Source: a virus
Lineage: Duplodnaviria > Heunggongvirae > Uroviricota > Caudoviricetes
Reading direction: 5' to 3' (one strand)
Virus record (IMG/VR): IMGVR_UViG_2619619135_000002
DNA: 45,104 bases
Position 1 is the first letter of the stretch; every line of letters begins with the position of its first letter. A program made the position numbers and the translations under genes. This document shows positions 26,083 through 40,348 of this stretch, one piece after another. The notes beneath the pieces were generated by a model that was given only the letters and a program-made list of their open reading frames with translations, was not told the DNA's origin and did no database searches.

Positions 26083-26157
<75 letters not shown>

Positions 26158-31093: not shown

Positions 31094-31551
31094 CGGTTGT
31101 CTCTGCTGGCGCAGCAGGTGCCAGTTGTTCAGGCTGGCGTATAAAGTATAAATAAACTGGTTCCAGTGTAAAGCCCCTACATTAATGGAATAAAAGTCAA
31201 ACAACAGATTGCTGGGATAAACACAACGCTTATTATTAAAAGCGATTAGATAAATTAAATTTTAATGTTATGCAATTTTACCAGATCACCATAACATCTC
31301 GTTTGAAACCACCGAAACAACAACCATATCAATATTGATTATGTTAAAGTGAGTAAATATGGAAAACAACAAATCTGCACATTACGCTCCTTTTTTATCT
31401 GTGATACTTTTTGTTTTATGCTGTGTGTGGGCATTATTTTTATAAAAATATTTACAGATAAAATAAACCCGCCGAAGCGGGTTAAGCGCGGGTGCGTTGA
31501 GGATGCCTGACACATCAGAGGCGGCGAGGGATTTCTCCCTCGCCTGGTCTC

Positions 31552-31707
31552 TTACTCCTCAGGTTCGTAGACTGTGAAGACAGCGACCTCCGTCTGGCCG
31601 GTTCGGATTCGTACCTCGCAGAGGTCTTTCCTCGTTACCAGTGCCGTCACTATGACGGTTAAACAGATGACGATCAGGGCGATTAACATCGCCTTTTGCT
31701 GCTTCAT
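31552..31707 (-). CDS. hok: Hok/Gef-family type I toxin (HokD/RelF-like), 51 aa
   Basis: MKQQKAMLIALIVICLTVIVTALVTRKDLCEVRIRTGQTEVAVFTVYEPEE: single TM helix plus the conserved C-x-[VI]-R periplasmic motif; near-identical to HokD as recalled. The in-frame upstream extension in the listed ORF is likely leader (mok-like) sequence. Confidence 0.85.
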   Translation of the reverse strand: MKQQKAMLIALIVICLTVIVTALVTRKDLCEVRIRTGQTEVAVFTVYEPEE

Positions 31708-32554
31708 AGCCTGCTTCTCCTTGCCTTTCGGCACGTAAGAGGCTAACCTAGATTTGCCGTTCATAGATTGAGCCTCAGATTAATGTTAAGCGTCTTGCAG
31801 GACGCGTAATGTTAACTGGGGCTTTTCTCTATCTGCCTTTGGTGTTCATGCCTGAGACAGATAGCCTCAAGCACCCGCAGCCATTGTACTTAACTCCCGT
31901 TACCTCGCCAATATAAAATCAATCAGAAAGGCGATCCATAAGGACAATAGCAAGACAATAAATTGCCATTACCCGCAATAGCCAGCGCACATTTGAGGAC
32001 CAGCACGACAACTTTCTGTATCGGACGTACACCAGTCCTGATAAATACAAGGCGGTCTCATCAGTGATGAAATGCAACTATTGAGTACAGTTTCTCTGAT
32101 TTTTCTGTAAAACATGGAACACAACAACTAAATATAACTAGCACTTCTTAAGATGTACAAATTCAGAGTTAAGATAACGTAAGCAGTTTTCTCAAAACTA
32201 AGTGTAAATTTTTAATGAAGAGCAGTGCTATGCTCCTGATCATATATTCATTGTTTGGAACTGGAGGAATATTTAGGTTGCTGGAGTGGTTGATTGAATT
32301 TAAATCAACTAAGACAAAAACCAACAATTAAAGATATGTGGTATATCAGAAAACAACTATCCGTATATTACTACAGAATTAAATACTAGCAACAAAGCTG
32401 TCTTTATTGATTTTTTATCTGATATCGAAATAAATAAACATAAAATAACCAACTAATTAAAACAGAGACTCGACAATGAGCCTCTATCTATTGTAACAGC
32501 ACTTCCAAATTTATTTTAGTAAGATAATAGCATGGGGCATACTAGCCCCATCTT

Positions 32555-35059
32555 TTAAACCGTTTCATCAAGGAAATACTTAGACGAATCATCCTGTTTC
32601 GGTTGATATGTTTTTTTTGCAGAATTAAGAACTCTTCTTAGTTCTTTTCTTAACTCAGGTAAACGCTCCTGAAGAGGGTTAGAACACCATTGTGAAGGCA
32701 ACCCTCTTATAATAGCTTCGGAACAAAGCGGTGAAATAAGTTTTTCCATTTGATAATAGAAAGTTTTTGCTCGACTTACACGCATTGTGATCCTTTTTAT
32801 TACATCTCTTTCAGACTCAATTCTAGCACTCAGATCTCTTAATCTACTCCATACCTTAGCATCAGCAATATATGTATCATAAAGCATACACTCTATAAAC
32901 GTGAAATTACTAATAAGTTCTTTTGCAATATACCCCCCCAGCCGAGAAGGAATGAAACTTGATGAAGCTGTTGGATCTCCGTGATTTACGGTGAACAAAA
33001 ACCTTTTATTGCATAAATCAACGAGAACTCGATGCGTGAAAGAGTCACCTATACCAATTAACCTTAACTTTTCAGTTATTACCGAACCATCGATTTGTCT
33101 GAATCCGGGATCGCTTGCATACGAAACGATAACATTAAGAATGTACAGCCTCAATAATTGCATTTGTGTCACAGCTAAATTCGAATCAAACGGGTTCGCA
33201 ATAGTCGACGTTGACTCGCTATAAGTCAACTCAGTACCCAGTAATATAGCTCTAAATGCCTCATGACGTGGAAGAAGATATCTTCCTTGTTCTCTGAAAA
33301 TTTGTACTGCTTTACCTGGACTCGTATACCCTCTTTCTAAGAACTCACGAGTCATACGTAATGCTAATCGAACATCATCCGTAGCAAGAACTTCAATACG
33401 TGTTCCAATCTCACTTCCCAGCACAGACCCACTAATAATATCGACTAATTGTGATATATCATCCAATACAACTTTAGCGCCATTTTCTGCAATAAAATTT
33501 CCACTTTTATTACTTGTCATATACTTTACTAGTGCAAAGCGTTTTGCAATCACACTACTTATTCTCGGTGGATCTATTTGTATAACTTCAAAATCGAAAG
33601 CATCTATAGCAGGTGAGTTTTTATGTTTGATAAATGTAGACTGCCTCAATGAAAGTACTAAATTTAATGAAAGCGCTCTGGAAATTGAAAATGACTCGGT
33701 AAATATCCGGGACTGGATATCATCAAACTCGATCTGATCAACGTTATCAATAACAAGAAAAAAAGATGTCTCTTTTGTAACGCGACTTATTATTTTATCA
33801 ACATAAGGTTTTATCTTTTTATATTGTTCATATAAAAAATCCGAGATTCTGGTATTTTTTTGATCCTCACTCAATAAAAAAAGAGGTCCTGATTTTATCG
33901 CCTCAATATCTTCTCGAAATGCATCAAATACAAAATCCTTATTACTCAAAACAGGATGCTTATTGATATATTCCAGAATTGATTTATAAATAAAATCGAC
34001 TATTGAACTTTCTGATGGATTATCTAGAAAGTCTATATGAACCCAATGCGGCGTCAAGATATCACATTGATTTGAAAAAAACTCTTTTATTCTAACCTTT
34101 CTCATGTAATGAAGAAATGTTGTTTTACCTGCACCTACAGTCCCAAGTAACAAGATCGCGAGAGGTTTGTCATTCCTGACTTTTATTTTTTTCTTCCCTT
34201 TAACCTGAAACTTATCAACTATTCTTTTTGTATCTTTATCATTAAGCCCTTTTAGTACTTCACCATTCAGCACACTTGAACGCCTACCTATATTCATTCT
34301 AATTTTACTATCGAATCTCATAGTTTCTGGTGTTGAAACATAACATTTATCAAAGGAGTCTTCATCCAAGTAAAGTATAGAATCAGAAAAAGCCAACCTT
34401 AATTCATCAGCAATCAAATGATATATTGGATTATTTGTCTGTGTTCTGTTTTGTTGCGAATAAAAATTTCTTAATTTTCTAAATTCTATTTGATTTTCGA
34501 CGCGACCTAAAAGTGCTGTTTCTAGACTTCCTGATATAACATTTTCACGACTAAGTAAATCATAGAATTCTTGATAATTATCATTTAAGCAATCTTCTAA
34601 CGACCAGAACACAAGCGCTATTGAATCATTAAATTTGACATTGTCATGCCTCTGAGCTGCAAAACATGCCCATACATTTCCATTCGTAGCGACAGCATAA
34701 TCTATACCAAATTTCCTGGCGTAATCTCTAGCTTGTATTATCGCTTCACCAAGATCACTTTGTAAAAAACTATTACTTAGCTTTATTTTTCTTTTTCCTG
34801 GAATTGTACTAAAGCTTGGCCCTGCCTTTTTAGCTTCAACAACAAGAGCAATATTAGCTGTTTTTAGTATATAATCAGCATAAGTTGTCAAACCATCTTC
34901 AGTCACATGCTCTTCTGGTTTTATATCACTATCAGTCCACATCAAGACTTCCTTTAATACCCGATCTATCACTTTTAGTCTTGTGGCTGCTTCATTTGCA
35001 TTTTCTAATTGTAAATGATGATAAGCTGATAATATTTCCGAAATAAATGTTTTCTCCAT
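32555..35059 (-). CDS. Large nuclease-NTPase fusion protein: N-terminal PD-(D/E)xK (HsdR-N/Mrr-like) nuclease domain plus STAND/NACHT-like P-loop NTPase plus alpha-helical C-terminal domain; candidate antiphage defence protein
   Basis: 834 aa. Residues about 60-77 TYADYILKTANIALVVEAKK give the D...E-x-K nuclease signature, followed by ...YAVATNGNVW... Walker A at about 306-313 (GTVGAGKT); Walker B at about 433-442 (FFLVIDNVDQ, a D-x-h-D-E/Q pattern typical of STAND NTPases). The gene and its flanks are visibly AT-rich relative to the rest of the prophage. Confidence 0.6.
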   Translation of the reverse strand: MEKTFISEILSAYHHLQLENANEAATRLKVIDRVLKEVLMWTDSDIKPEEHVTEDGLTTYADYILKTANIALVVEAKKAGPSFSTIPGKRKIKLSNSFLQSDLGEAIIQARDYARKFGIDYAVATNGNVWACFAAQRHDNVKFNDSIALVFWSLEDCLNDNYQEFYDLLSRENVISGSLETALLGRVENQIEFRKLRNFYSQQNRTQTNNPIYHLIADELRLAFSDSILYLDEDSFDKCYVSTPETMRFDSKIRMNIGRRSSVLNGEVLKGLNDKDTKRIVDKFQVKGKKKIKVRNDKPLAILLLGTVGAGKTTFLHYMRKVRIKEFFSNQCDILTPHWVHIDFLDNPSESSIVDFIYKSILEYINKHPVLSNKDFVFDAFREDIEAIKSGPLFLLSEDQKNTRISDFLYEQYKKIKPYVDKIISRVTKETSFFLVIDNVDQIEFDDIQSRIFTESFSISRALSLNLVLSLRQSTFIKHKNSPAIDAFDFEVIQIDPPRISSVIAKRFALVKYMTSNKSGNFIAENGAKVVLDDISQLVDIISGSVLGSEIGTRIEVLATDDVRLALRMTREFLERGYTSPGKAVQIFREQGRYLLPRHEAFRAILLGTELTYSESTSTIANPFDSNLAVTQMQLLRLYILNVIVSYASDPGFRQIDGSVITEKLRLIGIGDSFTHRVLVDLCNKRFLFTVNHGDPTASSSFIPSRLGGYIAKELISNFTFIECMLYDTYIADAKVWSRLRDLSARIESERDVIKRITMRVSRAKTFYYQMEKLISPLCSEAIIRGLPSQWCSNPLQERLPELRKELRRVLNSAKKTYQPKQDDSSKYFLDETV

Positions 35060-35768
35060 AGATTATTCTCTCTATAAAAAATAACGAAAATTTTTCTGAT
35101 TAGTTTTACCGCATTTAGTTACAATAACCTAGCTATGTCAAGTCTGATGTTATCCTAAATTTCATTTTTGTTATATTATCCTCTAATTCTTAAGGCACAC
35201 GTTTGAAAAGCGTCGACTTTCTCCTGTATGCTCTGAAGGTATCATTTACTCTGATTTTTCACGCAGTGTGCCGGATAGTTTTCTGTCAGGATAGAGCCCT
35301 AGATGACACGGATGACCGCTGATGACCTGAATATGATCATGTCGCTAACATTCGCCATGGGTAATATTATTAGCCAATCCCGCCCCATCTGTTCATTCTG
35401 CTCCTGAATGCCCCCCCCCGAAGTCAGCAGACTATGGCCTCGTTGCTGACATGCTCAGAGCCAACTCCTTACCCCCTTACGTAGAAGCAATCTCAGGCAC
35501 CATTAGTGATTACGGTAACCGAGCAGTTGTATTACACCGAACCGACTACCGCTATCATCAACACCTATCTTTGGGGCATAAAAGCGTGGCATAAAGGAAG
35601 CAACTAGGCAGTGATTATGTAAGTACATCTGTAAAACGGACCATCCATTTTAAATATCCTCTGATCCCCCTCAATATCCACCTCTAGCACAAAGCGGACA
35701 ACCACGCTAGCTCTCCCCTGTACCATGAAAATTTCAATTCACATATGTATTAATGCTCTTTAGTCTCT

Positions 35769-39782: not shown

Positions 39783-40348
39783 TTCATCCTCCTGAGGGTT
39801 AGTAATTAAGGAGTTCTCCACGGGTGAGGTGGAGTGCGTGCGCCGGACACGGGTGAGCATCCGGCACTGACAGTTTACTGAAAGGATATCTCCCTGAAAA
39901 GTCAGGGCATAACGCGAAAGCGCACGGCGAAGTTGTTGGTTCATAGATAGCCTGTCGTTAAATTTTCGTCGACCGTGCGCTTCCGGTTGTGGCACTCCGC
40001 GAAATGGCGCGGCGGTAAGTATGGCGGGGTTATTCCTTCCCCGTTGAGGACACCGGGTTGTCAGGTTGACCATACGCTTAAGTGACAACCCCGCTGCAAC
40101 GCCCTCTGTTATCAATTTTCTGGTGACGTTTGGCGGTATCAGTTTTACTCCGTGACTGCTCTGCCGCCCTTTTTAAAGTGAATTTTGTGATGTGGTGAAT
40201 GCGGCTGAGCGCACGCGGAACAGTTAAAACCAAAAACAGTGTTATGGGTGGATTCTCTGTATCCGGCGTTAATTGTTAACTGGTTAACGTCACCTGGAGG
40301 CACCAGGCACCGCATCAACAAAGTTCATTTGTAAAAATGGAGATAATT

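Follow-up and report, generated by a model that had tools for sequence, protein, structure and literature searches.

Two small genes that face each other in a prophage, one for a toxin of the hok family and one, a probable gene, for a short hydrophobic peptide, raise the question of whether they belong to a single toxin-antitoxin system or have merely come to lie side by side. The stretch in which they were found (hereafter the window: all of the 45,104 nucleotides analysed, from a virus record of the Caudoviricetes) had been described in an initial annotation made from the letters alone, which proposed a Hok toxin with an in-frame leader, expected a sok RNA and fold-back elements that it did not map, and took the peptide encoded nearby on the opposite strand for a possible type I toxin. 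Our analysis partly confirms that observation and partly supports its interpretation. We read the region as a complete locus of the hokW-sokW type standing next to a separate module that carries a 28-codon gene for a membrane peptide, and we put the probability of this whole reading at about three in four.

The element that hosts both genes is a Qin/Rac-like lambdoid prophage of E. coli, and hok and the small ORF lie in its nin region. Positions 31200-31900 are identical in three E. coli chromosomes, and the minus-strand genes follow the order cro, ydaT, replication gene, DUF977, 834-aa gene, hok, rem-like gene, DUF968, rusA and Q. Full-length DicF sRNA at 40118-40169 on the plus strand (Rfam RF00039, 76.7 bits) confirms that the prophage has a Qin-like dicB-operon arm. 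The AT-rich island that had been said to adjoin hok is indeed there, with a G+C content of 30-39% across 32200-35400 as against 48-56% to the left. Within it lies the 834-aa ORF, for which we obtained only matches below threshold (NACHT/P-loop, HSDR_N and a methyl-directed restriction enzyme model). In other prophages the place of this gene is taken by IteS, an ATP-dependent nuclease, an Sll1717-type ATPase or QueH, and the position therefore looks like a variable slot for anti-phage cargo; OLD-like nucleases and further anti-phage genes are also carried there. The features on which the argument depends are collected in Table 1.

Table 1. Features of the hok/sok locus, of the adjoining small-ORF module and of the neighbouring 834-aa ORF, with positions in the window.
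Feature	Position	Strand	Basis or remark
Conserved prophage module, 373 bp, carrying the small ORF	31111-31483		Breakpoint analysis
Promoter-like site TTTACA-16-TATACT (10/12 matches), facing the rem-like gene	31145-31172	-	Promoter scan
Terminator-like short hairpin CGCUU-N8-AAGCG with U-rich tract	31227-31244	-	Terminator scan
Inverted repeat ATGTTATG-N17-CATAAYAT	31265-31297		Alignments
Promoter-like site TTTCCA-16-CATAAT, overlapping the start codon of the small ORF	31338-31365	-	Promoter scan
Shine-Dalgarno-like sequence of the small ORF	31346-31353	+	AAAGTGAG here, AAGGTGAG in most copies
Small ORF, 28 codons, encoding MENNKSAHYAPFLSVILFVLCCVWALFL	31359-31445 (incl. stop)	+	ORF list; unannotated
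hok mRNA, full length, about 415 nt (leader, mok/hok coding region, 3' UTR, terminator)	31462-31876	-	Rfam match and fold
G+C-rich hairpin terminating the hok mRNA; junction of the hok/sok and small-ORF modules	31466-31483		Terminator scan
fbi (fold-back inhibition) element CCUCAACGCACCC, in the hok 3' UTR	31490-31502	-	Pairs with the first 12 nt of the mRNA, one bulge
hok toxin gene, 51 aa	31552-31707	-	Pfam, PHROG, identity to HokD
mok, 70-codon ORF in frame with hok, common stop codon	31552-31764	-	ORF list
Sok promoter TTGCCT, 17-nt spacer, TAACCT	31721-31749	+	Read from the sequence
Sok antisense RNA, 74 nt	31756-31829	+	sokW annotation and fold
tac element GGGUGCUUGAGG, 5' end of the hok mRNA	31865-31876	-	Pairs with the 3' fbi in the predicted fold
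hok mRNA promoter TTGGCG-17-TACAAT	31883-31911	-	Promoter scan
834-aa ORF	32555-35059	-	Inside the stretch of 30-39% G+C; hypothetical in RefSeq

The toxin gene lies exactly where it had been placed, and its product scores 78.6 bits against the Pfam family PF01848 (Hok/Gef; cut-off 22) and 111.5 bits against PHROG 251 ('MokW-like host killing'). Its near-identity to HokD, which the initial annotation had stated, amounts to 50 of the 51 residues (98%) in the comparison with K-12, and identical copies of the product carry the label HokD from PGAP. The leader reported upstream is equally real: a 70-codon frame that runs into hok and ends with it, and whose product is 89% identical to MokW of phage 933W, annotated there in the same way. 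In the annotations of 933W and VT2-Sakai, mokW and hokW both end at one stop codon. The K-12 pair mokC and hokC does so too, and the 'in-frame leader' is therefore simply mok.

Around these two frames we located the remaining parts of a hok/sok system. The -10 element of the hok promoter ends 6 nt ahead of position 31876, the 5' end of a match to the Rfam family RF01794 ('sok') that extends to 31702 on the minus strand, reaches 110 bits (gathering score 59) and spans model positions 1-157, the whole model. This was the search by which the initial annotation had proposed to look for sok and hok elements, and the match has the orientation of hok and stops within the hok AUG; the model thus detects the leader of the hok mRNA, including the target of Sok, and not Sok. 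Users of this family may wish to note that its 'sok antitoxin' hits mark the hok mRNA leader, and that the strand reported is the opposite of that of the real Sok RNA. The fold predicted for the full hok mRNA has a z-score of -8.45, and in the minimum-free-energy structure tac pairs with fbi, an element that is conserved in hokW of 933W and in hokD of K-12. On the plus strand, the Sok promoter scores below the threshold of a simple consensus scan, and its -10 element is a poor match to the consensus; the whole promoter stretch is identical to that of 933W, in which inactivation of the sokW promoter by mutation has been described (PMC8621323). The sokW annotation of 933W maps onto 31756-31826. 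The Sok RNA of the window is predicted to leave its 5' end unpaired where it covers the mok start codon and Shine-Dalgarno sequence, and to continue in a long hairpin and a U-rich tail (-33 kcal/mol, z = -5.8). The antisense RNA and the fold-back elements that had been expected at this locus are thus present in sequence and predicted fold. At the other end lies the hairpin that terminates the hok mRNA; in loci without hok, T runs flank this hairpin on either side and make it a perfect bidirectional terminator.

On this evidence we are almost certain that 31462-31911 forms a hok/sok type I toxin-antitoxin locus, complete in its parts and of the hokW-sokW type. Its nucleotide identity to hokW-sokW of the Stx phages 933W and Sp5 (VT2-Sakai) is about 93% between the terminator region and the hok promoter, and the in-frame mok of 70 codons, the sequence of the Sok promoter and the leader are those of the Stx-phage loci too. 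The differences concern the first five residues of Mok, the C-terminus of Hok and the location: hokW-sokW of 933W stands near the right end of the phage after the tail genes, whereas the window locus sits in the nin region beside the cargo slot. The comparison with hokD (relF) of the K-12 prophage Qin comes out differently. Besides the nearly identical toxin, the two have in common the 3' UTR with fbi and terminator, as well as the downstream neighbours (the rem-like gene, DUF968/ydfU and Q), but homology begins only 17 nt before the hok ATG, and K-12 hokD, which follows relBE with relE upstream, lacks mok, sok, tac and a promoter of its own. Because everything upstream of the Shine-Dalgarno sequence is missing from K-12 hokD, the window locus is better called a complete hokW/sokW-type locus than hokD, the name that the annotation pipeline attaches to it because of protein identity. 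The PGAP label 'HokD' covers two things, the truncated and Sok-less K-12 gene and complete loci of the hokW/sokW type. The general layout of promoter, tac, mok, Sok across the mok start, hok, fbi and terminator is also that of hok/sok of plasmid R1 and of the chromosomal hokC/mokC/sokC, with the difference that mok of R1 is in another frame than hok. The hok part of the region is therefore already known, and the hok/sok locus itself adds nothing new.

Experiments have shown hokW-sokW to be a toxin/antitoxin pair of type I that depends on RNase III and Hfq, and HokW is 44% identical to Hok of R1 (PMC8621323). By likeness to this 93%-identical pair, the window copy would be expected to make a toxic Hok that Sok neutralises. 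How it would be regulated can be sketched from the R1 hok/sok paradigm and from the experiments on hokW-sokW. A stable hok mRNA would be transcribed from the minus strand, and its 5' tac would be locked against the 3' fbi, such that neither mok nor hok is translated. Trimming of the 3' end would allow the mRNA to refold; mok, whose frame here is also that of hok, would then be translated and so permit translation of hok. The short plus-strand Sok RNA would pair with the region of the mok start, block translation and trigger cleavage; upon loss of Sok, the 51-aa Hok would insert into the inner membrane and kill or arrest the cell. Like several hok loci of K-12, the window locus could instead be an inactive relic that neither regulates nor kills any more, as might be suspected from the many neighbouring copies in visible decay (degenerate terminators, a truncated hok, or 3' remnants only) and from the weak -10 element of Sok. 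We consider this improbable, given that every element is intact in the window copy and that its leader, its Sok promoter and most of its coding sequence are identical or nearly identical to those of the functional hokW-sokW.

Whether the small ORF has any part in this system depends on what it is and where else it occurs. The initial annotation had reported a peptide of 25 residues at 31366-31443. The residues it quoted do occur, but the coordinates and the size do not hold, as 31366 lies within the third codon and the stop codon already begins at 31443; the frame has the extent given in Table 1. Its product, MENNKSAHYAPFLSVILFVLCCVWALFL, consists of a polar N-terminus of 9 residues followed by a hydrophobic segment of 19 residues. 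Conservation in related loci, on which the initial annotation had staked its claim, is borne out: in each of the 168 copies examined (19 nucleotide haplotypes that fall into two clades) the ORF is intact, begins and ends at fixed positions and has 28 codons, free of insertions and deletions. The two clades are 75% identical in protein and 74% identical in the DNA of the module, and the peptide of the second clade is MENNKFAHLAPFLSVILFACCFIWALFL or a close variant. Across the variants, replacements preserve the hydrophobic character of the peptide. Both clades conserve a Shine-Dalgarno sequence in front of the ORF; in most copies it reads AAGGTGAG and stands 5 nt ahead of the ATG, and the window copy has a weaker version (AAAGTGAG, AAAGTG vs AAGGTG). 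Nowhere does the module vary more than in the spacer just upstream, which differs by several insertions or deletions; after it, conservation resumes, island-like, over the Shine-Dalgarno sequence and the ORF. The two clades cease to be homologous at the stop codon of the ORF, beyond which their sequences are unrelated.

Neither gene callers nor protein databases list the peptide. A Pfam search gave no match, NCBIfam and PHROG returned only matches with E values of at least 0.03, far below the cut-off, and an exact look-up of eight variants of the peptide among 15 billion proteins found none. By tblastn, the only phage records matched were those of four prophages induced from E. coli; there were also matches to two chromosome-sized entries labelled as plasmids. 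A degenerate coding pattern run over 185,579 species genomes retrieved Shigella flexneri and Escherichia ruysiae only, and two patterns made for more diverged codon usage found nothing in viral contigs. The Salmonella and Klebsiella phages that have the gene order DUF1367-NinG-Q contain neither a homologue nor an equivalent opposite-strand ORF upstream. A full-text search of the literature with the peptide sequence gave no match, the site is not described in the Pas sRNA preprint or in the Tai paper, and the peptide is absent from the supplements of a Ribo-seq study of small genes in O157:H7 Sakai, an absence that is informative only if Sakai carries the module. Common gene callers have a minimum length of roughly 90 nt. 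At 87 nt the small ORF is shorter than such cut-offs and would for this reason escape annotation pipelines. As to the suggestion that the peptide is 'type I toxin-like', it is indeed small and hydrophobic, but it has no homology to any toxin family, and the label speaks to size and hydrophobicity only.

The distribution of the ORF separates it from hok. We mapped breakpoints in about 130 prophage loci and found that the module which carries the ORF has a sharp left end at 31109-31111, and a right end at 31483 where hok is missing, at about 31535 where only a 3' remnant of hok is present, or past 31876 where hok/sok is complete. Conversely, the homology of phage hok/sok loci to the window begins only at 31465-31480, beyond the small ORF, and breakpoints cluster at 31465-31483. 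Among the approximately 157 small-ORF loci with enough flanking sequence, hok and its leader are adjacent in 48%, no trace of hok is found in 34% and a 3' remnant alone in 14%, while the left block of the module and the small ORF occur together in 155 of 157. The resulting unit of 373 bp separates the variable cargo slot from the gene that comes first on the Q side, which is rem-like here and DUF1367 in other prophages. Of 5426 complete E. coli genomes, 766 contain segment 31240-31470 of the main clade (identity 84-100%), in no case annotated, and 466 contain the second clade, which makes roughly 1,200 copies; the module is absent from K-12, including its Qin and DLP12 prophages. Among the carriers are E. 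coli MS 119-7, identical to the window over 701 bp, the ST131 O25:H4 isolate CU568-3 and, for the second clade, NCTC9112. It could be argued that the ORF is an accessory of hok/sok, such as an additional toxin, or a modulator whose transcription converges on that of hok, because in the window the two are immediately adjacent, convergent and served by one common terminator hairpin. This distribution already contradicts such a role, with about a third of the small-ORF loci lacking an adjacent hok, and with phage hok/sok loci (933W, Tritos, mEp460 and others) and K-12 hokD lacking the small ORF, and we regard it as barely credible. The small ORF is very probably independent of hok/sok, that is, the two are separate modules side by side.

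Two readings of the module have to be weighed against that of a translated gene. The pattern of substitution within the ORF points to selection on a protein. Nei-Gojobori estimates of dN/dS are 0.16-0.28 between the clades and 0.08 between two variants of the main clade, and changes concentrate at synonymous sites (pS 0.41-0.51 vs pN 0.12-0.15; Fisher tests on rounded synonymous and non-synonymous counts, P = 0.003-0.04). The frame of the small ORF has the lowest pN/pS of all six; the antisense frame that has its third codon positions in common with it is also low (0.32). A minimum spanning tree of the haplotypes contains 16 synonymous and 23 non-synonymous events, where a simulation keeping the observed mutation spectrum expects 9.7 +/- 2.5 synonymous ones (P = 0.013). 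These statistics come from only 39 inferred substitutions, because the homologues, all in Escherichia and Shigella, are close to one another. In the opposite direction, an antisense ORF of 58 aa at 31339-31515 on the minus strand was considered as a gene and rejected, its start and end not being conserved.

The module might nevertheless be kept for reasons at the level of DNA or RNA, with the open frame an untranslated by-product of low divergence; its role could then be that of a promoter or terminator for the nin and Q-side genes, of hairpins in the minus-strand early transcript, or of a recombination linker flanking the cargo slot. There are indeed conserved elements of a non-coding appearance. 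A strong sigma-70-like site, the promoter-like one that matches the consensus at 10 of 12 positions, precedes the rem-like or DUF1367 gene by about 50 nt, its hexamers are unchanged in both clades while its spacer varies, and it would be placed to drive the Q-side genes. The inverted repeat has conserved arms and spacing around a spacer of variable sequence, and could be an operator or an RNA hairpin. In the terminator-like hairpin, the changes seen (G-C to G-U; C-G to U-G to U-A) leave the stem paired only when it is read on the minus strand, and together these elements at 31227-31297 could belong to a minus-strand RNA or form a protein-binding site. The ends of the module also coincide with mosaic breakpoints, a simulation under neutrality gives a chance of 0.13 for the frame to stay free of stop codons, and none of the sites upstream of the small ORF passes a scan for plus-strand sigma-70-like promoters; a looser scan yields weak candidates only, none of them conserved. 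Even so, the conserved elements sit upstream of the ORF and not inside it, the excess of synonymous change lies within it, and start, stop, length and Shine-Dalgarno sequence are fixed in two clades that continue into unrelated sequence downstream. We therefore judge an untranslated ORF to be possible but on the unlikely side, and a real protein-coding gene, likely translated, to be the better-supported account of the same data. Judging from its composition, the product would be a single-pass hydrophobic peptide of the inner membrane, and we take the gene to be probably a genuine small membrane-protein gene whose expression and location are here predicted from sequence.

If the ORF is translated, it could still be one half of a second type I toxin-antitoxin pair, with a layout like that of ldr/rdl or tisB/istR-1. 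The other half would be a minus-strand RNA of about 110 nt that starts at the promoter-like site over the start codon of the ORF, ends at the terminator-like hairpin and is antisense to the 5' UTR of the peptide mRNA. Both clades have variants of that site with an acceptable -10 element, so placed that the site could start such an RNA; the hairpin, with its strand-specific compensating changes, is followed by a U tract, and a conserved A/U-rich linker joins the two hairpins. The peptide also has the size and hydrophobicity of TisB (29 aa), ShoB (26 aa) and DinQ (27 aa). It resembles TisB, ShoB, DinQ and Ldr/Rdl in its length, in having one hydrophobic helix and in being carried by a mobile element, and an RNA antisense to its 5' UTR may exist, but it shows no sequence similarity to these families. 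Several points speak against the pair. A stable fold for the minus-strand RNA had to be rejected, as the candidate folds no better than shuffled sequence (z = -0.09); its terminator stem has only 5 base pairs, its middle is the most variable part of the module, neither the peptide nor the RNA matches a toxin family or an Rfam family, respectively, and the overlap between the RNA and the peptide mRNA is hypothetical. It is thus doubtful that the peptide gene and the 110-nt RNA represent an unrecognised family of type I toxin-antitoxin systems, or of small membrane effectors, at the border of a defence slot. Two further ideas about RNA structure were followed. A long-range hairpin between the body of the ORF and the sequence after its stop codon is not conserved in other variants, and a direct-repeat search for complementarity to a trans-acting or divergent RNA gave nothing convincing.

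Returning to the reading that we prefer, a separate module with its own peptide gene, what it offers lies on the side of the small ORF rather than of hok. Never annotated, conserved, apparently under purifying selection and widespread in E. coli prophages, this ORF is a useful lead. If it is translated, it would represent a new family of small membrane proteins for E. coli; if the peptide is moreover toxic and controlled by an RNA, the family would be a new type I toxin-antitoxin family. The module, present in roughly 14-23% of complete E. coli genomes, would also be a handy marker for the presumed anti-phage cargo slot: its left neighbour is the rem-like/DUF968 pair or DUF1367, and its right neighbour can be IteS, the ATP-dependent nuclease, the Sll1717-type ATPase, QueH or hok.

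Several smaller observations concern the surroundings of the slot. Decaying copies of hok/sok stand beside the module in a number of loci (L008 at 1811-1918, L009, L032, L056 and others), some of which retain only the fbi region, and this suggests that hok has repeatedly been lost or replaced here. Only in two loci, L179 and L181, is the left block not followed by the small ORF; in its stead they carry an unrelated G+C-rich sequence, about 150-330 nt to the right of the left block, and this might be an insertion element. Finally, the prophage of the window carries a tRNA-Gly(UCC) at 26083-26157 on the minus strand, and in a related induced prophage a tRNA-Gly(TCC) follows the Q gene at a distance of a few hundred bases.
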